Below are positions 4,242 through 50,074 of a stretch of DNA of 64,000 nt, piece after piece; position 1 is the stretch's first letter, and the number at the start of each line of letters is the position of its first letter. Location of the stretch: the sequence record OP870147.1; one strand, 5' to 3'. Origin of the DNA: Escherichia phage vB_Eco_F31. The notes under the pieces were generated by a model, which did not search any database, was not told where the DNA came from, and saw only the letters and a program-made list of their open reading frames with translations. Made by a program: the position numbers and the translations under genes.

Positions 4242-4299
4242 AATATTCTCCTCATGTTTTAATAGGACTACTATAATATAGCCCTATCAGTTTGTACAC

Positions 4300-4500
4300 T
4301 TATTTTGACATTTCTTCGATGTCACGACGATACCCATCACGAACTTCACGAAGAGCTTCAAGGCCACACATAGGCTCGATACCAGTAATGTGAACTTGAT
4401 TAATCTGATACTCTACATCTTCTAACTGAGCGAAAACATAACGACGTTCTGCTGCACAACCAGGTTTAGCTTTACCGAAACGTTTATTCAAAGTAGTCAT
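4300..4500 (-). CDS. hypothetical protein
   Basis: ORF track 4300..4518; ATG 4500 preferred because preceded by GGAG SD and downstream of the early promoter. Confidence 0.45.
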   Translation of the reverse strand: MTTLNKRFGKAKPGCAAERRYVFAQLEDVEYQINQVHITGIEPMCGLEALREVRDGYRRDIEEMSK

Positions 4501-4538
4501 TTTTATATCTCCATTCACTCATTTGTTTTGATAGGTCT

Positions 4539-4568
4539 ATAGTATCAACAACTACAGACCTTGTAAAC
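4539..4568 (-). promoter_or_regulatory. early promoter (GTTTAC-N18-TACTAT) with flanking inverted repeat AGGTCT/AGACCT
   Basis: T4 early-promoter pattern upstream of 4300..4500. Confidence 0.5.
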
Positions 4569-5822: not shown

Positions 5823-5863
5823 TTGATAGGACTACTATAACATAGCCCTATCTTGTTGTAAAC
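5823..5863 (-). promoter_or_regulatory. early promoter module (GTTTAC + TA-rich -10) with repeated element GATAGGACTACTATAACATAGCCCTATC
   Basis: Near-identical to the modules at 4262-4288 and 12443-12470. Confidence 0.5.
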
Positions 5864-8950: not shown

Positions 8951-9115
8951 TTAGATGTAAATTATTTCAACGTCACCTTTAGCTGCTTTATAACCTTCAG
9001 CCCAAGATACAACAGAGTTTTTATCTGAGGATTCAAATTCAGGCATTGGACTTTCACCAATATTCACACAGTATGTTTCTTCATTTTCATCGAACCAAAT
9101 AATTAAAGTAGTCAT
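8951..9115 (-). CDS. hypothetical small protein (54 aa)
   Basis: Manual translation MTTLIIWFDENEETYC...; GAGGAG SD; promoter-like module upstream; below ORF-track size cutoff. Confidence 0.4.
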   Translation of the reverse strand: MTTLIIWFDENEETYCVNIGESPMPEFESSDKNSVVSWAEGYKAAKGDVEIIYI

Positions 9116-9183
9116 TTTGTTTACTCCTCTGTTGTTGATAAACCCATAGTATCACCATCCTTGGTGCTTGTACATCATTATTT

Positions 9184-9489
9184 TTAATTTTTCCAACTTA
9201 ACAACTTGTAGTGTCCTTCATTCATACGTGGTTTATCCCAAGAAATACTAATATATGATTCACCGTCAATAGAAGTCGCCGGGTTTTTCTCTACCGTAAG
9301 ACCTTCACTTTCCAGCCATTCAATAGTATTTGAGCATAAATCAGAAGAACACCTCATCGGGAACCGGCAAGATTTTTCACCTTTAGCCGCAGTGTTATAC
9401 ATCTTTTCTAAAATACGCTTTTGCACGTTTTTAAAAATAGTTTCAGCAGATTCTTCAGATTTTTTATTCAGTTCAGTGTAAAGACTCAT
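9184..9489 (-). CDS. hypothetical protein
   Basis: 101 aa ORF, GAGGAG SD, early promoter upstream. Confidence 0.55.
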   Translation of the reverse strand: MSLYTELNKKSEESAETIFKNVQKRILEKMYNTAAKGEKSCRFPMRCSSDLCSNTIEWLESEGLTVEKNPATSIDGESYISISWDKPRMNEGHYKLLSWKN

Positions 9490-9517
9490 AATATTCTCCT
9501 CTGTGGTTGATAAGTCT

Positions 9518-9546
9518 ATAGTATCATGTCCTTAGAAGAAGTAAAC
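9518..9546 (-). promoter_or_regulatory. early promoter (GTTTAC-N17-TACTAT, minus strand)
   Basis: Upstream of 9184..9489, downstream of a terminator. Confidence 0.55.
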
Positions 9547-9577
9547 ATCTTTATGAAATATTTTTATGCCCTAGATG

Positions 9578-9607
9578 CCAAAAAGCCCCAACCATAAGGA
9601 AGGGGCA
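9578..9607 (-). terminator. rho-independent terminator (GCCCC...GGGGC + U5) after the 9613..10077 gene
   Basis: Stem-loop plus CTTTTTGGCAT on the minus strand. Confidence 0.5.
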
Positions 9608-10077: not shown

Positions 10078-10121
10078 GTTGCTTTTCCTAAATTAATTAA
10101 CTTATCTATTTATTATTATGC

Positions 10122-10149
10122 CAAAAAGCCCCAACCTTTCGGAAGGGGC
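10122..10149 (-). terminator. rho-independent terminator (GCCCC...GGGGC + U5) closing the tRNA/small-RNA transcription unit
   Basis: Stem-loop plus CTTTTTGGCATAA on the minus strand. Confidence 0.5.
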
Positions 10150-12414: not shown

Positions 12415-12442
12415 TTTATTTCTCCATTTACTCATTTGTTTT

Positions 12443-12481
12443 GATAGGACTACTATAACATAGTCCTATCTGCATGTAAAC
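12443..12481 (-). promoter_or_regulatory. early promoter module (GTTTAC + -10) with perfect 9-bp inverted repeat GATAGGACT/AGTCCTATC
   Basis: Upstream of 12229..12414; module shared with 4262 and 5825. Confidence 0.5.
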
Positions 12482-24400: not shown

Positions 24401-24550
24401 TCGGAACGACGTAAACTGATGAGCCCATTATTTGATGCGTCCGGAACAACATTCTCTAGATTTAGAGATTTGGTTGAACAACGGTTAATCGATAATGTAG
24501 GAAATCCAAGAGACCCCGTGAATCCACCGCAGGTTAAATTAGATGAATGA
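21452..24550 (+). CDS. 7: gp7 baseplate wedge initiator
   Basis: 1032 aa ORF, same length as T4 gp7. Confidence 0.93.
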   Translation: MTVKAPAVTSLRISKLSANQVQIRWDDVGANFYYFVEIAETKTADGEIIPPASYRWINLGYTPNSNWFENSLDPLTSYIIRVSTAAEGFERSDWVYTEIFESFQTNAYTFQHMIEMQLANTFIREKFTNNNMAYVDFNNDTIMAALMNESFQFSPAYADISSIKNFIIGENEYHEIQGSIQQVCHDINRVYLMESEGILYLFERYQPVVKVSNDKGQTWKSVKLFNDRVGYPVSRTVYYQTDYTTYVLGYDKLFYGRKSTDVRWSADDVRFSSQDITFAKIGDQLNLGYDVEIFGNYASLPANVSRIAEAIVCNDDYVYVAARDKVRFIKTSNAPIDSDPLSPTYSERLFEQETFNITGNPKAVCYKMDSVGGKIFALIIGEVVNLNDDPRTTPIVDSADKGVYVLDHDAGTFKRVFGNTEEERRRIEPGYTSMSTDGVELSISSSNFKFLESDIVDDPKTQIKYGLIGAVKYEYPREWLADKHYHMMAFISTEDSQWESFTPQPMEYYAEPFFSYSRKSGTRCWINNSDKAVVIYSDLLYTKVIENHPLSSSDREVHEYWKDGDCTIVMPNVDFTGFKKYASGMIFYKSSGEIISYYDFSYRVRDNVSIIWKPTNIFLTASLQNQEKDTTWTPVEENGITDPDLRPLLTTMMPESYLLDNTNFEAFCEAYIQYLSDGYGTHYNNLLNLIKNQYPREEHAWEYLWSEIYKRNIYLNAEKRDLVSRFFESRSYDFYSTKGTEASYKFLFKVLYNEDVEIEIESSSGTEYDIIIESDSLTEDLVGQTIYTATGRCNVTYIERSYSKGKLQWTVTIHNLLGRLIQGQEVKAERLPGFEGEIVRGIKGKELSQNNIDYINRGRAYYVMKIKSKLPSSRWKSDVLRFVHPVGFGFIAITLLTMFINTGLTLKHVETIINKYKNYKWDSGLPTKYADRVAKLDPQGNVEFDPITGKAIYEIGPMAGQDYPLPEDYNAENNNSIFQGQLPSERRKLMSPLFDASGTTFSRFRDLVEQRLIDNVGNPRDPVNPPQVKLDE

Positions 24551-25577
24551 TTCAAGTGTTATCTATCGTGCAATAGTTACATCAAAATTTAGAACAGAAA
24601 AAATGCTGAATTTTTATAATTCAGTTGGGGATGGAGATGATAAGAACTCCATTTATATTACGTTCGGACGTTCAGAGCCTTGGGCGTCAAATGAAAATGA
24701 GGTGGGCTTCGCCCCACCTTATCCTACAGATTCTGTTCTTGGTGTTACTGATATGTGGACCCATATGATGGGTACCGTTAAAGTTTTACCTTCAATGTTA
24801 GATTCTGTTATTCCTAGGCGTGATTGGGGAGATGTGCGATATCCGGACCCTTACACGTTTAGAATTAACGATATAGTCGCGTGTAATACTGCTCCGTACA
24901 ACGCGACAGAAGTTGGAGCTGGTTGGTTAATTTACCGTTGTTTAGACGTCCCTGACGTAGGGCTCTGTTCAATAGAATCTTTAGATAATAAAGATGAATG
25001 TCTTAAATTGGGTGGTAAATGGACTCCGTCTGTTCGTTCTATGTCTCCTCCTGAAGGCAGAGGCGATGCTAATGGGGTTATCGAAACCGGTGATGGATAT
25101 ATTTGGGAATATCTTTATGAGATTCCTGCCGATGTGTCAATTAACCGTTGCACTAATGAATACCTTGTAGTTCCATGGCCGGAAGAAATTAAAGAAGACC
25201 CAACCCGTTGGGGATATGAAAATAACTTAACTTGGCAACAAGATGACTATGGCTTGATTTACCGTGTTAAAGCCAATACGATGCGGTTTAAAGCATATTT
25301 TGATTCGGTTTATTTCCCTGAGGCAGCTTTGCCTGGTAACAAGGGTTTTAGACAGATATCAATTATCGCAAACCCGTTAGAAGCTAAGAAAAATCCAAAT
25401 GACCCTAATGTTAAAGCAGAAAAGGATTATTACGACCCTAGAGACTTGCAACGTCATTCTGGTGAAATGATTTATATGGAAAACCGACCACCTGTTATTA
25501 TGGCAATGGACCAAACAGAAGAAATTAACATTTTGTTTATGTTTTCCCAACCCGTTGGGGATATGAAAATAACTTAA
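24543..25577 (+). CDS. 8: gp8 baseplate wedge protein, C-terminus altered by tandem duplication (10-aa extension SQPVGDMKIT)
   Basis: 344 aa ORF; native stop displaced by a 347-bp duplication; without it the protein would be 334 aa. Confidence 0.85.
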   Translation: MNDSSVIYRAIVTSKFRTEKMLNFYNSVGDGDDKNSIYITFGRSEPWASNENEVGFAPPYPTDSVLGVTDMWTHMMGTVKVLPSMLDSVIPRRDWGDVRYPDPYTFRINDIVACNTAPYNATEVGAGWLIYRCLDVPDVGLCSIESLDNKDECLKLGGKWTPSVRSMSPPEGRGDANGVIETGDGYIWEYLYEIPADVSINRCTNEYLVVPWPEEIKEDPTRWGYENNLTWQQDDYGLIYRVKANTMRFKAYFDSVYFPEAALPGNKGFRQISIIANPLEAKKNPNDPNVKAEKDYYDPRDLQRHSGEMIYMENRPPVIMAMDQTEEINILFMFSQPVGDMKIT

Positions 25578-25892
25578 CTTGGCAACAAGATGACTATGGC
25601 TTGATTTACCGTGTTAAAGCCAATACGATGCGGTTTAAAGCATATTTTGATTCGGTTTATTTCCCTGAGGCAGCTTTGCCTGGTAACAAGGGTTTTAGAC
25701 AGATATCAATTATCGCAAACCCGTTAGAAGCTAAGAAAAATCCAAATGACCCTAATGTTAAAGCAGAAAAGGATTATTACGACCCTAGAGACTTGCAACG
25801 TCATTCTGGTGAAATGATTTATATGGAAAACCGACCACCTGTTATTATGGCAATGGACCAAACAGAAGAAATTAACATTTTGTTTATGTTTT
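25199..25892. repeat. perfect direct tandem duplication, 2 x 347 bp (copy 1 25199-25545, copy 2 25546-25892)
   Basis: Base-by-base comparison of the two copies; ORF 25601..25894 re-encodes the last 96 gp8 residues in a shifted frame. Confidence 0.9.
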
Positions 25893-25897
25893 AATTA

Positions 25898-43688: not shown

Positions 43689-45257
43689 ATGACTACTATC
43701 AAAACTAAAGCTCAGCTCGTAGACAAATGGAAAGAACTGCTGGAAGGTGAAGGCCTGCCGGAAATCGCTAATAGCAAGCAGGCTATTATCGCTAAAATCT
43801 TCGAAAACCAGGAAAAAGATTTCGAAGTATCCCCTGAATATAAAGACGAGAAAATCGCTCAGGCATTTGGTTCTTTCTTGACCGAAGCTGAAATTGGTGG
43901 TGACCATGGTTATAATGCTCAGAACATCGCAGCAGGTCAAACCTCTGGTGCAGTAACCCAAATTGGGCCGGCAGTTATGGGTATGGTTCGTCGTGCTATT
44001 CCTAATCTGATCGCTTTTGATATTTGTGGTGTTCAGCCTATGAACAGCCCTACCGGTCAGGTATTTGCTCTCCGTGCAGTATATGGTAAAGACCCTATCG
44101 CTGCTGGCGCTAAAGAAGCTTTCCATCCGATGTATGCCCCAGACGCGATGTTCTCTGGTCAGGGTGCTGCTAAGAAATTCCCAGCTCTGGCTGCTGACAC
44201 TACTACTGTTGTAGGTGATATCTATACTCACTTCTTCCAAGAAACTGGTACTGTATATCTGCAAGCTTCTGCTGTCGTAACACTTGATTCTAGTGCAACT
44301 GATGCAGCTAAATTAGATGCAGAAGTTAAGAAACAAATGGAAGCTGGTGCACTGGTAGAAATCGCTGAAGGTATGGCTACTTCTATCGCTGAACTCCAGG
44401 AAGGTTTCAACGGTTCTACCGATAACCCATGGAATGAAATGGGCTTCCGTATCGATAAACAAGTTATCGAAGCTAAATCTCGCCAGCTGAAAGCTGCTTA
44501 CTCTATCGAATTAGCACAAGACCTCCGTGCAGTACACGGTATGGATGCTGATGCTGAACTGAGCGGTATTCTGGCTACAGAAATTATGCTAGAAATCAAC
44601 CGTGAAGTTGTTGATTGGATTAACTACTCAGCACAGGTTGGTAAATCCGGTATGACCCTGACTCCGGGTTCTAAAGCTGGTGTATTTGACTTCCAGGACC
44701 CGATTGATATCCGTGGTGCTCGTTGGGCCGGTGAAAGCTTTAAATCTCTGTTGTTCCAGATTGATAAAGAAGCAGTTGAAATTGCTCGTCAAACCGGTCG
44801 TGGTGAAGGTAACTTCATTATCGCTTCCCGTAACGTAGTTAACGTACTGGCTTCAGTTGATACTGGTATTTCTTACGCTGCACAGGGTCTGGCTTCTGGT
44901 TTTAATACCGACACTACTAAGTCTGTATTTGCCGGTGTACTTGGTGGTAAATACCGCGTATACATCGACCAGTATGCTAAACAGGATTACTTCACCGTTG
45001 GTTACAAAGGCGCTAACGAAATGGATGCAGGTATTTACTATGCTCCTTACGTTGCACTTACCCCGCTGCGTGGTTCCGATCCTAAGAACTTCCAGCCGGT
45101 AATGGGCTTTAAAACTCGTTACGGTATCGGTGTTAACCCGTTTGCTGAAAGTTCCCTGCAGGCTCCAGGTGCTCGCATCCAGTCCGGTATGCCATCTATC
45201 CTGAACAGCCTTGGTAAGAACGCTTACTTCCGCCGTGTATATGTAAAAGGCATCTAA
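43689..45257 (+). CDS. 23: major capsid protein
   Basis: 522 aa; strong resemblance to T4 gp23. Confidence 0.97.
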   Translation: MTTIKTKAQLVDKWKELLEGEGLPEIANSKQAIIAKIFENQEKDFEVSPEYKDEKIAQAFGSFLTEAEIGGDHGYNAQNIAAGQTSGAVTQIGPAVMGMVRRAIPNLIAFDICGVQPMNSPTGQVFALRAVYGKDPIAAGAKEAFHPMYAPDAMFSGQGAAKKFPALAADTTTVVGDIYTHFFQETGTVYLQASAVVTLDSSATDAAKLDAEVKKQMEAGALVEIAEGMATSIAELQEGFNGSTDNPWNEMGFRIDKQVIEAKSRQLKAAYSIELAQDLRAVHGMDADAELSGILATEIMLEINREVVDWINYSAQVGKSGMTLTPGSKAGVFDFQDPIDIRGARWAGESFKSLLFQIDKEAVEIARQTGRGEGNFIIASRNVVNVLASVDTGISYAAQGLASGFNTDTTKSVFAGVLGGKYRVYIDQYAKQDYFTVGYKGANEMDAGIYYAPYVALTPLRGSDPKNFQPVMGFKTRYGIGVNPFAESSLQAPGARIQSGMPSILNSLGKNAYFRRVYVKGI

Positions 45258-45281
45258 TCTTAATTGATTAAATCTTATTTT

Positions 45282-45310
45282 GGGAGACTTCGGTCTCCCA
45301 TTTTTGGTTT
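45282..45310 (+). terminator. rho-independent terminator after gene 23 (GGGAGAC-TTCG-GTCTCCC + T-run)
   Basis: GC stem, TTCG loop, ATTTTTGGTTTT tail. Confidence 0.75.
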
Positions 45311-45579
45311 TATTTCTGTGCAATTTCGATGTAAGTTTTCAAAATATTTTGCCAATTAGGCATACCTTCTTGGACATATGCTGGAGAACCGTCTTTGTTT
45401 TTGAATGATGCAAGTTTATCAGTGGCCCAATAACCTTTAGCTCGAGCTTCAGAATCAACTTTCATCCATACTTTGTTGAAGGCATTACCATTAACTTTTG
45501 CACCATATTTTTCTACTAACTTAACTGCTTCAGCTTCCAGAACTTTTAAAGTATCTCTTAAGAAACGTGCTTTAGTCAT
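45310..45579 (-). CDS. hypothetical protein
   Basis: 89 aa ORF with GAGGAG SD and own early promoter; occupies the segD position of T4. Confidence 0.55.
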   Translation of the reverse strand: MTKARFLRDTLKVLEAEAVKLVEKYGAKVNGNAFNKVWMKVDSEARAKGYWATDKLASFKNKDGSPAYVQEGMPNWQNILKTYIEIAQK

Positions 45580-45609
45580 TTTGTTTACTCCTCTGTAGTT
45601 GATAAGTCT

Positions 45610-45639
45610 ATAGTATCACATACCAAATACGTTGTAAAC
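45610..45639 (-). promoter_or_regulatory. early promoter (GTTTAC-N18-TACTAT, minus strand)
   Basis: T4 early-promoter pattern upstream of 45310..45579. Confidence 0.55.
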
Positions 45640-45645
45640 AATCTT

Positions 45646-45653
45646 TATAAATA
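45646..45653 (+). promoter_or_regulatory. late promoter TATAAATA for gene 24
   Basis: Exact octamer 28 nt upstream of gene 24 ATG. Confidence 0.65.
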
Positions 45654-45680
45654 ATCTATATCACATAAGGAAAAAATGCA

Positions 45681-46964
45681 ATGAGTAAAATCCAAAAATT
45701 ATTGCGTGAATCTACAACGTCTACTAGCAACTCAATTGGTCGCCCAAATCTCGTTGCTTTGACTCGCGCTACGACTAAATTAATATATTCTGACATTGTA
45801 GCAACACAAAGAACTAATCAACCTGTTGCTGCTTTTTATGGTATCAAATATCTTAACCCAGACAACGAATTCACATTTAAAACCGGTGCTACTTATGCTG
45901 GCGAAGTTGGATATGTAGACCGAGAAAAAATTACTGAACTCACAGAAGAATCAAAAGTCACACTAAATAAAGGTGATTTTTTCAAATATAATAATATCGT
46001 CTATAAAGTGTTAGAAGATACACCATTTGCAGATATTCAAGAAAGTGATCTAGAATTAGCTCTTCAGATTGCAGTCGTTCATTTAAAGGTACGGTTATTT
46101 TCAGATGCAGCGGTAACAAGCAAATTTGAAAGCTCTGATAGCGAAATTTCTGATGCAAGATTCCAGATTAATAAATGGCAAACTTCAGTCAAATCTCGCA
46201 AACTTAAAACTGGTCTCACGGTTGAATTAGCGCAAGATTTGGAAGCGAATGGATTTGATGCCCCTAACTTCTTAGAGGATTTGCTTGCTACTGAAATGGC
46301 TGATGAAATTAATAAAGATATTCTTCAGTCTTTAATTACTGTATCGAAACGTTATAAAGTTACTGGAATTACTGACACCGGATTTATTGACTTGAGCTAT
46401 GCATCCGCTCCAGAAGCAGGTCGTTCATTATATCGAATGGTGTGTGAAATGGTATCACACATTCAAAAAGAGACAACTTATACTGCAACGTTTTGTGTAG
46501 CCTCAGCTCGTGCAGCTGCTATTCTTGCTGCTTCTGGTTGGTTAAAACATAAGCCAGAAGATGACAAGTATCTTTCACAAAATGCTTATGGATTCTTGGC
46601 AAATGGATTACCTCTTTACTGCGATACCAACAGCCCGTTAGATTATGTTATTGTGGGTGTTGTAGAAAATCTCGGCGAAAAAGAAATTGTAGGGTCCATC
46701 TTTTATGCTCCATACACTGAAGGAGTAGATTTAGATGACCCAGAACATGTCGGTGCTTTTAAAGTTGTAGTTGATCCAGAAAGCTTGCAACCGTCTATCG
46801 GATTATTGGTTAGATATGCCTTATCAGCAAATCCTTACACAGTAGCAAAAGATGAAAAAGAAGCGAGAATAATTGATGGCGGGGACATGGATAAAATGGC
46901 AGGACGTTCAGACTTGTCTGTTTTACTCGGTGTTAAGCTACCAAAAATTATCATTGATGAATAA
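45681..46964 (+). CDS. 24: capsid vertex protein
   Basis: 427 aa, same length as T4 gp24. Confidence 0.95.
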   Translation: MSKIQKLLRESTTSTSNSIGRPNLVALTRATTKLIYSDIVATQRTNQPVAAFYGIKYLNPDNEFTFKTGATYAGEVGYVDREKITELTEESKVTLNKGDFFKYNNIVYKVLEDTPFADIQESDLELALQIAVVHLKVRLFSDAAVTSKFESSDSEISDARFQINKWQTSVKSRKLKTGLTVELAQDLEANGFDAPNFLEDLLATEMADEINKDILQSLITVSKRYKVTGITDTGFIDLSYASAPEAGRSLYRMVCEMVSHIQKETTYTATFCVASARAAAILAASGWLKHKPEDDKYLSQNAYGFLANGLPLYCDTNSPLDYVIVGVVENLGEKEIVGSIFYAPYTEGVDLDDPEHVGAFKVVVDPESLQPSIGLLVRYALSANPYTVAKDEKEARIIDGGDMDKMAGRSDLSVLLGVKLPKIIIDE

Positions 46965-46996: not shown

Positions 46997-47995
46997 TTAT
47001 GATACTAATTCAATCCATGCAGGACGCAGAACATCTTGCACCATTCGGACTAATTCTTTCTTAACAAGATTCGGATTATCAGATGATGTTAATACAATAC
47101 CTTCACGAGAAGTTTCTTCCAGAATATCTTGAACAGTCAATCCCATCACTTTGCCAAAATCTTTTGGCGTTACAGTCCCAATCTTAGAAATCACATTATT
47201 AACACGATTTAATGTAACATAACAAGCTAGAACATCAAGTAAGTTTTTGTCAATTTCGGTTAATGGAACCTGAGTTTTAATAGGCTTATCAGACTTTTTC
47301 TTTTCACTGAATTTAGAGTTCTTGCACTTAATAGCTACACGAGTACCGTTTGGCAGCCATTTAGGGAAACAGGGCTTCAGAACATAACCTTCCGCAGTAT
47401 TATTACCAATAACATTAGCATCAAATACGCAATTATTTGCTTCGACAAGGTCTTCTGACGCAGTAGCATTATAAGCGGCTAAGACAGAATCAAGGTCGTT
47501 TGGAATCATGATAAGAGCATCAAATGTGCCACGACCAAGCATTGGTGCCATTTTAAAACCGAATTCATTACAGAAATCTTGCATTTCATAATCGGTCAAA
47601 TACGTATTATCACCACTTTCTGTATTGATAAGGATATCGAACACATAAAAATCTTTTTCACCGTAGTCAACACCTTTCTGGATTCCACCACCGGCGAATT
47701 CACCGAATACTTGATATGATACGGCTCGAGCTGTGTACATGAATTCCTGAACGGCTTTAATAGCTTTATCATACTTCTTGAGTACGATTTCATAACCATA
47801 AAAATCTTCTGCTGGAAGAATAGGGCCTGTGCGCTTGGCGCATGTGACGTTGTCACGTTCAATTATTAACGAGAAGTTAGTCCCATGGATTTTCTCACGT
47901 GCTACCCAAACACCAGTAGTCAAACCATTAGTGTAGAGTTTTTCAATAAACTTAGAGTTGTAGTGGTTTTCAAGACTGCTGTATTTCTTAAACAT
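46997..47995 (-). CDS. rnlB: RNA ligase 2
   Basis: 332 aa; [21 protein letters not shown]...[12 protein letters not shown] with ligase motif I lysine. Confidence 0.93.
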
Positions 47996-48655: not shown

Positions 48656-50074
48656 TTATGGATATGTATAGATGATACCAGTTTCCAAAGCAGTTTTATG
48701 GATGATGTATCCATTACGTGATTCTTGAACATCAACTTCTGGATAATCTTTCATCATCTTCTGAAGAGTGTAACGATGCAGGTAGTATTTACTATCTGGA
48801 TCTTCAGTTTTCCAATCTTTACCTTCTTCAGTCATTTTTTGGATTTCATCCATAACCCACCATCCGCACCAGATGTAAGCTGAAGTACGATGTGGAAGAG
48901 GATGAACATAAGGTAATTCACCTTCTGGTTCTGGAGCAACTTTATCGGTTACCTGAACTTGACCTTCTGCTGTAATAGTTTTGCTATCGTAATCAGTTGC
49001 AGTAATAGTTGCAGTAACTTCAATAGTTTGACTTCCAATAGATGAGGTATCAACGGTATATACATTAGTTGACCCTTCTACAGGAGAAGAATCTTTCTTC
49101 CATGAATACTCAATTTGCGCTTCTTCTGGAGCATCAGTGACATTAGCGGTAAATGTAGCCGAAGCATCTTGCTGAACGTTAATAGAAGGAGGAGTCAATG
49201 TAACCCGTGGATTCATTGTCTTCTTATTAACCGTTAATGATACTTCATTCGAAGTAACTTCCTTTGCATCATAATCTGTCGCGGTTACTTGGGCTACACA
49301 CTTAATTCTTTTTACTCCACTTGTAGTCGGAGTATAGCTAAATGTAGAGTTAGTTTCTCCACCAACCTGTGAATCATCTACATACCACTGATACGTAGCA
49401 GACGCTCCAACCGGTTGAGAAGCTAAGGCAGCAGTAAATTGAACTGGGGTTCCAATTACTCCGGCTGAAGGACTATTGGGAGTTACTGCCAACGTAGTTG
49501 TCTGTGTCTTTTTATTAACAGTCAGTGACACTTCATTAGAAGTAACGCTTAGTGCGTCATAATCTGTTGCGGTTACTTGGGCTACACATTTAATTTTTTT
49601 AACTCCGCTTGTGGTAGGAGTGTAATTGAATGTAGCAGAAGTTGCTTCGCCAACAGGAGAATCATCTACATACCATTGATAAGTAGCGTTTGCGCCTGAT
49701 GGCTGCGAAGCTAAAGCGGCGGTAAATTCAATAGCTGTTCCTATTACTCCAGCGTCAGGGCTATTAGGAGTTACAGCTAAGGTAGTCGTTTGTGTCTTGT
49801 TTTGAACTGTGATAGTTGTAGTAGCTTCTGCTGTTTCAGCTTCAGCGTCTGGAACTGTATTTGTTGCAACTACTTTAATAGTCTTTTGACCGGCAGGTCC
49901 TTTTAGTACATAACTAAAAGTTGCTTCAGCTCCATCTTGTGGAACATCATCCACAGACCAAGCATATGTAATAGGTCCATCTCCAGTTTGACCACTGGGT
50001 GTAGCAGTAAACTGCTTAGTCTCATCTATAACTCCAGTAGGTGTTTTAGGAGTTATATCAACTGTAAAAGCCAT
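48656..50074 (-). CDS. hoc: Hoc outer capsid decoration protein with four Ig-like domains
   Basis: 472 aa; N- and C-terminal segments match T4 Hoc pattern; internal 96-aa unit duplicated in tandem. Confidence 0.9.
   Translation of the reverse strand: MAFTVDITPKTPTGVIDETKQFTATPSGQTGDGPITYAWSVDDVPQDGAEATFSYVLKGPAGQKTIKVVATNTVPDAEAETAEATTTITVQNKTQTTTLAVTPNSPDAGVIGTAIEFTAALASQPSGANATYQWYVDDSPVGEATSATFNYTPTTSGVKKIKCVAQVTATDYDALSVTSNEVSLTVNKKTQTTTLAVTPNSPSAGVIGTPVQFTAALASQPVGASATYQWYVDDSQVGGETNSTFSYTPTTSGVKRIKCVAQVTATDYDAKEVTSNEVSLTVNKKTMNPRVTLTPPSINVQQDASATFTANVTDAPEEAQIEYSWKKDSSPVEGSTNVYTVDTSSIGSQTIEVTATITATDYDSKTITAEGQVQVTDKVAPEPEGELPYVHPLPHRTSAYIWCGWWVMDEIQKMTEEGKDWKTEDPDSKYYLHRYTLQKMMKDYPEVDVQESRNGYIIHKTALETGIIYTYP
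49223..49798. repeat. diverged in-frame tandem duplication (2 x 288 bp) inside hoc encoding two Ig-like domains
   Basis: Protein units KTQTTTLAVTPNSP...SLTVNK repeated with about 84% amino-acid identity. Confidence 0.8.

Follow-up and report, generated by a model that had tools for sequence, protein, structure and literature searches.

Morons, as described by Hendrix and colleagues, are autonomous promoter-gene-terminator units found between conserved genes. In T4, the interval between genes 23 and 24 is occupied by segD, a free-standing homing endonuclease gene of the GIY-YIG type. T4-type phages also carry ORFan cassettes termed PeSL (promoter-early stem-loop) (Arbiol et al. 2010, PMC2839356; PMC4122927), whose T-even promoter consensus is TTTACW-N17-TAYWAT (Comeau et al. 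2014, PMC4122927) and whose crossovers have been mapped between the -10 element and the ATG (Arbiol et al. 2010, PMC2839356). Among small early proteins of T-even phages that are directed at the host is Emp/Gp94 of Mosigvirus AV110; the screen of early proteins in this phage picked genes by their homology to T4 (bioRxiv 10.64898/2026.09.14.751387).

Here, the gap between genes 23 and 24 was analyzed in 64,000 nucleotides of Escherichia phage vB_Eco_F31 (OP870147.1), the stretch of DNA hereafter called the window. The feature lodged in this gap is an ordinary, already annotated accessory early gene, belonging to a known type of cassette that is acquired, lost and exchanged among T4-like phages. 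Like a moron, it forms a transcription unit of its own, with a core structural gene on either side, and is dispensable, patchily distributed and common to unrelated phages; unlike morons, which were defined in temperate lambdoid phages and are expressed from the prophage, it sits in a virulent phage behind a lytic early promoter. It resembles Emp/Gp94 in that its product is small, driven by an early promoter and conserved in Mosigvirus, Dhakavirus and Gaprivervirus, but the two proteins have no sequence relationship. Our reading, to which we assign a probability of roughly 0.6, is that the unit in the gap is a compact early accessory cassette that was gained or exchanged and whose early product may be directed at the host. 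As such the finding is routine, since small early ORFs abound in T4-like genomes and promoter-borne ORFan cassettes have already been published.

The gene 23-24 interval and its small gene

A segment of 701 bases spanning the locus showed 99.7% identity to Escherichia phages vB_EcoM_PhAPEC2, APCEc01 and about 100 other records, and the taxonomy given in the PhAPEC2 record is Straboviridae, Tevenvirinae, Mosigvirus, RB69 group. Sequence identity thus places the window in a Mosigvirus (RB69-like) genome. Local gene order is 21, 22, 23, small ORF, 24, rnlB. According to the ORF list and the PhAPEC2 record, gene 23 (43689-45257) and gene 24 (45681-46964) lie on the plus strand and rnlB (46997-47995) on the minus strand, so that 45258-45680 is indeed the gene 23-24 gap, as stated in a preliminary description of this DNA.

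Most features that the preliminary description had listed for the gap were recovered. An ORF encoding 89 amino acids, with an ATG start, occupies 45310-45579 (stop codon included) on the minus strand, antisense to the late capsid genes on either side, and matches phrog_6003 as well as RB69ORF188c/189c. Its Shine-Dalgarno sequence GAGGAG, read directly from the minus strand (45593-45588), lies 8 nt upstream of the ATG. Further upstream, after a leader of about 30 nt, a consensus scan located a T4-type early (sigma-70) promoter at 45610-45638, minus strand, composed of a -35 hexamer TTTACA (45638-45633), a spacer of 17 nt and a -10 hexamer TACTAT (45615-45610) preceded by TG, in the form TG-n-TACTAT. 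The late promoter of gene 24, TATAAATA, was read from the plus strand at 45646-45653, 7 nt from the early promoter; it is invariant across the aligned related loci and is also present in those phages whose interval is empty.

By itself, a simple hexamer scan performed no better than chance, yielding 2 sites for the region versus 2.3 expected. The extended motif TKTACD-N17-TAYWRT-N6-ATYAA gave 11 exact matches in the window, all on the minus strand, versus 0.01 expected, a count that is partly circular because the motif was built from the same sites; the strand bias and the placement of the sites ahead of ORF starts are free of this circularity. The promoter at 45638 shares its extended architecture with the other members of a set of 11 or 12 minus-strand sites, each of which precedes an ORF. 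An inverted repeat flanks the -10 hexamer of several early promoters, for instance GATAGGRCTAT...ATAGTAGTCCTATC, as seen in the minus-strand promoters at 12441-12480, 5823-5862, 4259-4298 and 4528-4567, and in the promoter at 1233-1272 two strings are complementary, TCCTCCAAG within the spacer and CTTGGAGGA at the Shine-Dalgarno sequence. The 45638 promoter has no such dyad. The leader RNA showed no structure beyond that of shuffled controls (z = +0.7 and +0.2 for the shared leader discussed below), and an Rfam search over 45000-46000 returned sub-threshold noise only.

On the other side of the ORF, 9 nt beyond its end, a terminator scan identified the intrinsic terminator of gene 23 (45281-45310, plus strand), formed by the hairpin TGGGAGAC-TTCG-GTCTCCCA followed by TTTTTGGTTT. 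The hairpin proper (45281-45300) has a fold energy of -16.8 kcal/mol on the plus strand and -13.5 kcal/mol on the minus strand, where it also closes the transcript region of the small ORF. This element had been called a bidirectional terminator, a label that was not confirmed: the rule of a hairpin plus T tract was passed on the plus strand only, since the minus-strand RNA folds but its tail, AAAAUAAG, contains no U tract. In the annotation of PhAPEC2, an ARNold terminator is likewise found at the matching site on the plus strand only. Counterparts of the hairpin are present in T4, RB51, CF1, Pet-CM3-4 and KEN22.

Several lines of evidence bear on whether the ORF is a gene. It gave a full-length HMM match to phrog_6003 (E = 2.1e-45, residues 1-89 against profile positions 1-90), tblastn found a homolog in 239 phage records, and about 120 Mosigvirus records annotate the ORF as "hypothetical". 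Compared with metagenomic homologs of 62-70% identity, it showed a saturated pS of 0.69-0.80 and a pN of 0.21-0.24, with dN/dS of about 0.15. In an alignment of 20 family members seven residues were invariant (M1, K3, F6, G31, N32, N35 and Q70), an N-G-N loop being among these positions. By these measures the 89-aa ORF is a true, selectively maintained gene. The preliminary description had allowed that it might prove to be a conserved, characterized T4-family gene; conserved it is, being annotated in over 230 phage records, but characterized it is not.

The ORF is damaged in some phages. The RB69 reference (NC_004928, locus 4292-4532) carries two frameshifts and a cluster of mismatches, and because of the frameshifts the gene is annotated there as ORF188c plus ORF189c; either this is a pseudogene of a laboratory strain or the frameshifts are old sequencing errors. 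In phage mogra (P0007) the ORF is cut to 51 amino acids. Combined, these cases indicate that the ORF is dispensable. A literature search retrieved no papers naming RB69ORF188c, and the ORF fell outside the AV110 screen because it has no T4 homolog.

The missing U tract on the minus strand makes antisense read-through into gene 23 possible, and some read-through from the small ORF unit would be expected. This raises an alternative in which function resides in the promoter and the ORF is a bystander, early antisense ('anti-late') RNA over gene 23 serving to hold off expression of the major capsid protein early on. Early anti-late RNA is an established phenomenon in T4 and provides a precedent. 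The strong purifying selection on the coding sequence and the optimal Shine-Dalgarno sequence are at odds with an incidental ORF, the protein is also kept in phages where no capsid gene adjoins it, and most T-even phages have no promoter in this interval at all. We consider this alternative very improbable.

A family of early promoter and leader units

The block between the extended -10 hexamer and the second codon of the small ORF, both included (45573-45619, minus strand), had been reported as nearly identical to that preceding an unrelated ORF at 8951-9115, and both statements were borne out. The two segments match at 42 of 46 positions (91%) from the -10 hexamer to the ATG, the second block being located at 9109-9155 on the minus strand, upstream of a 54-aa ORF that belongs to phrog_5461 and not to phrog_6003. 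A string including the Shine-Dalgarno sequence, GAGGAGTAAACAAAATG, recurs at 9113-9131, and the window contains exactly two copies of the 19-mer CAGAGGAGTAAACAAAATG. The likeness fades upstream of the -10 hexamer, only 21 of 36 positions being identical between the copies at 45638 and 9174.

To place this similarity in context, the -10-to-ATG segments of 12 minus-strand early promoter units were compared in all 66 pairs. The pair 45638/9174 was the best of the 66, with its 91% set against a median of 67%, and was followed by 45638/9545 with 83% (38/46, aligned from -10 to ATG); without gaps, 9481-9527 and 9109-9155 were 70% identical. In this comparison the likeness between 45573-45619 and 9109-9155 is real and lies at the extreme of the distribution, yet it is that of the closest pair inside a family. 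Since the window holds at least 12 such early promoter/leader units, the similarity does not amount to a private link between the two ORFs. Elsewhere in the early hyperplastic region, two copies of a GCCCC...GGGGC terminator hairpin that are 91% identical were observed at 9575-9606 and 10118-10149. The copy at 9575-9606 lies directly upstream of the 9545 early promoter, and together they make up a complete PeSL-like terminator-plus-promoter unit.

The unit in the gap matches the PeSL cassettes in a number of traits. Its promoter, TTTACA-17-TACTAT, fits the consensus TTTACW-N17-TAYWAT and has in addition the upstream TG; the 3' end of the promoter element reads GAGGAG, 8 nt, ATG; the small ORF that forms its cargo is found in some phages and missing from related ones; the sequence nearly identical to that of other cassettes falls in the crossover zone of PeSL, from -10 to ATG; and the interval is associated with insertion, deletion and replacement, being occupied, empty or filled with segD in different phages. 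It departs from them in others. No stem-loop is found upstream of its -35 hexamer, because the late promoter of gene 24 sits there, and the only hairpin is the one at the opposite, 3' end of the ORF. A single extended-motif site exists in 45000-46000, so that a tandem second element is lacking. Moreover, the unit lies inside the conserved capsid module and not in a hyperplastic region as PeSL do, and its gene is fixed in its slot across three genera. With neither an upstream stem-loop nor a second flanking cassette, the classical mini-circle signature of PeSL is absent, and no flanking direct repeats or duplicated stem-loops that would mark an integration were found at the locus. The unit therefore fits the known type in part: it behaves like a PeSL or moron cassette, yet is not a canonical PeSL.

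Occupancy of the interval in related phages

Three states of the interval were observed. In Tequatrovirus RB51, Moonvirus CF1, Karamvirus Pet-CM3-4 and Jiaodavirus KEN22 the gap is empty, measuring about 83 bp and consisting of the terminator, some 13 nt and the late promoter. In T4, FL33 and CJY920 it contains about 725 extra bp with segD on the minus strand, in agreement with what the preliminary description had said of T4. About 340 extra bp with the small ORF, also on the minus strand, are found in Mosigvirus, in Dhakavirus WG01 and 04086, in Gaprivervirus VR20 and in the metagenomic T4-like contigs L011, L013 and L018. In the sampled rows, 25 records of Tequatrovirus type were empty and segD was restricted to T4, FL33 and CJY920, which makes it scarce even within Tequatrovirus; the closest relatives of Mosigvirus (most Tequatrovirus, Moonvirus and Karamvirus) have an empty interval. 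To say that the window has a small ORF "instead of a homing endonuclease", as had been done, takes T4 for the norm and is misleading, since T4 segD is the exception.

The edges of the variable segment are sharp. By blastn, the window aligns with T4 over 45201-45305 and again from 45632, and homology with RB51 restarts only at 45646. These edges define a cargo-specific segment at 45306-45631 (minus strand), without T4 or RB51 counterpart in blastn, that comprises leader, ORF, -10 hexamer and spacer and reaches from the T tract of the terminator to the junction of early -35 and late promoter. Searches by tblastn revealed no remnants of the ORF in the segD interval of T4 or in the empty interval of RB51. 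All occupied intervals contain TGTAAAC-AA-n-TTTATAAATA, in which the early -35 hexamer and the late promoter adjoin back to back, and this junction is kept in Mosigvirus, Dhakavirus, Gaprivervirus and the metagenomic loci as well as upstream of T4 segD. The three states of the gap, empty, segD or small ORF, with their sharp edges, constitute a clean natural experiment on cargo exchange in a structural module.

T4 segD and the 89-aa ORF share the interval, the antisense orientation and the early -35/late promoter junction upstream, but are unrelated genes, segD encoding 223 amino acids with a nuclease domain and the ORF 89 amino acids with no domain. Upstream of segD, the T4 sequence (NC_000866 106300-107450, L015) contains on the minus strand, at 954-982 of that segment, the site TTTACA-17-TG-n-TATTAT, which matches at 10 of 12 positions, is the best early-promoter-like site of the region, abuts the late promoter of gene 24 and is positionally homologous to the promoter of the window. 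A 2010 review of T4 mobile elements noted that no segD-specific promoter had been found and that transcripts were probably vanishingly low (PMC2988022), and a time-resolved omics study of 2022 classed segD as early in RNA and middle in protein, with the protein detected (PMC9697503, supplementary files 4 and 6). The comparison thus reveals a possible segD promoter in T4, for a gene reported to have none of its own. The omics data are the sole expression evidence bearing on the ORF of the window and, by analogy, lend indirect support to an early activity of this promoter position. Given its promoter sequence and the T4 analogy, the 89-aa ORF would be transcribed by the unmodified sigma-70 RNA polymerase of the host right after infection, within the first minutes.

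Divergence of the ORF was compared with that of the adjoining gp24. T4 and RB51, whose gp24 is 95% identical to that of the window, have no ORF, and neither do CF1 (84%), Pet-CM3-4 (79%) and KEN22 (69%). In loci with the ORF, identities to the window for gp24 and the ORF were, respectively, 69 and 70% in L013, 71 and 62% in L011, 70 and 37% in VR20 (L002), 68 and 35% in L018, 69 and 33% in WG01 (L003), and 68 and 30% in 04086 (L004). Because divergence of the ORF does not track that of gp24, gain or exchange of a cassette is plausible. The insertion is not recent, however, as the same slot is filled with a shared gene in three genera at 30-38% identity to the ORF of the window. Two tandem gp24 paralogs adjoin the small ORF in L002, L003, L011 and L018, that is, in Dhakavirus, Gaprivervirus and some metagenomic contigs; L011 combines this duplicated gp24 of Dhakavirus/Gaprivervirus style with a Mosigvirus-type ORF (62% identity).

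The family extends beyond Straboviridae. Relatives were found among small hypothetical genes in the rV5-like Vequintavirinae phage ABPH49 and in a similar metagenomic contig, and another in a contig with lambda-J-like tail genes and a DEAD helicase. Outside T4-like phages no conserved neighbor gene was found, apart from a downstream ORF common only to the rV5-like loci and absent from the window. In these two contigs a local sigma-70-like promoter is located upstream of the relative, which agrees with the earlier proposal of cassette-mediated insertion: the interval of the window holds a self-contained ORF plus promoter, and the relatives in unrelated phages also follow sigma-70-like promoters.

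The same data can be read as vertical inheritance without cassette movement, the slot having been filled in the ancestor of Mosigvirus, Tequatrovirus, Dhakavirus and Gaprivervirus and then emptied by several deletions, with segD replacing the ORF in the T4 lineage behind the same early promoter. Slot, orientation and early -35/late promoter junction are identical in all occupied loci including T4; a fixed position and orientation in three genera fits repeated loss; and T4 shares the -35 region with the window (from 45632), whereas the empty RB51 shares sequence only from the late promoter (45646). This scenario needs the ORF to have been lost independently in Tequatrovirus, Moonvirus, Karamvirus and Jiaodavirus, phages with a gp24 at least as close to that of the window; it sits poorly with ORF identities ranging from 30 to 70% while gp24 stays at 68-71%, and with the presence of the family outside Straboviridae. 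We regard purely vertical descent as doubtful, though it deserves consideration. Relatives lacking the gene, uncoupled divergence and members outside Straboviridae together favor a mobile accessory unit with its own promoter. Such a unit would be a dispensable, moron-like accessory cassette of T4-type phages, gained or exchanged as a promoter-plus-ORF module, and recombination could proceed through the conserved flanks provided by the capsid genes or through the short conserved early promoter/leader sequences.

Cassette-mediated insertion, as first proposed for this locus, survives in part. The self-contained, promoter-borne ORF, its insertion relative to an empty gap of about 83 bp and its discordance with the divergence of gp24 speak for it; a private link between two ORFs through the shared block, the classical PeSL mini-circle signature and a recent event find no support.

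The 89-aa protein

The product is a basic, soluble alpha/beta protein of 10.1 kDa. Its pI is 9.6, and values of 9.2-9.9 were obtained for all members of the family but one. An AlphaFold2 model based on the 20-sequence alignment reached a pLDDT of 94 and a pTM of 0.79 (an earlier run with 5 sequences, at pLDDT 68, was too weak for use) and comprised helices at 3-25 and 31-48, a beta-hairpin at 52-60 and 66-70, and a C-terminal helix at 76-88.

Searches for identity gave little. No Pfam profile scored above threshold, the closest being DUF4859 with 17.9 bits against a cut-off of 22.6, and no match was obtained in NCBIfam, in PADLOC anti-phage defense profiles (0 families at E <= 1) or in a family profile search of PDB sequences. 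Foldseek comparison of the pLDDT-94 model with PDB gave a best E-value of 0.6 and TM-scores of at most 0.4, and with BFVD it retrieved the family member A0A346FIP4 only. Judging from the model, no known fold is recognized. An exhaustive HMMER search of 1.84 billion representatives returned only 9 matches, and the two large proteins among them, one with Cyt-b5 repeats and one with Ig repeats, were discarded as spurious, since repeats inflate their scores. Residues 40-70, WATDKLASFKNKDGSPAYVQEG, resemble the first strands of cytochrome b5-like domains (P0013), a likeness that we judge to be due to chance or to short-motif similarity. An identity as a cytochrome b5-like or DUF4859 protein was rejected on the grounds that P0013 matches these residues only, with a repeat-inflated score, and that DUF4859 remains sub-threshold.

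These searches also bear on the idea that the ORF is a remnant or a partner of a homing endonuclease element such as segD, for which the argument is one of position, the GIY-YIG gene of T4 occupying the same slot in the same orientation. Pfam, NCBIfam and Foldseek detected no homing endonuclease domain (GIY-YIG or HNH) in the 89-aa protein, Pfam giving nothing but the sub-threshold DUF4859 instead of a nuclease; outside the flanks, tblastn and blastn showed nothing in the segD interval that resembles the ORF family; and the modeled fold has no nuclease match. In the light of these results, the endonuclease origin is effectively refuted.

Under the cassette reading, the product of the small ORF would act on a component of the host, in host takeover or in counter-defense. 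Given its basic character, our guess is that the protein likely binds nucleic acid or an acidic partner. That it does so as an effector of host takeover or counter-defense, with nucleic acid or an acidic host factor as its target, is a tentative proposal, in our estimate rather less probable than its opposite. Equally speculative is a wider version, in which an early effector with a new fold has been passed among at least three unrelated phage groups (T4-like phages, rV5-like phages and the contig with lambda-J-like tail genes) and neutralizes a specific host defense or host factor through its affinity for nucleic acid or an acidic partner. A basic protein with a confidently modeled new fold, under purifying selection in unrelated phages, is a reasonable candidate for anti-defense and host-takeover screens; those conducted so far chose genes by T4 homology and therefore missed this family.

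Repeats were also observed elsewhere in the window. Downstream of rnlB and genes 24.2/24.3, a tandem 288-nt repeat with 77% identity (49217-49792) probably corresponds to repeated Ig-like domains of hoc. Within a baseplate wedge gene, an exact direct repeat of 300 nt (25199-25498 and 25546-25845, spaced by 347 nt) reflects a perfect tandem duplication of 347 bp. It is missing from the closest relatives, in which an 851-nt query covers only 504 bp, and it splits the reading frame of the gene into ORFs 24543-25577 and 25601-25894; the duplication could be an assembly artefact or a genuine disruptive event.
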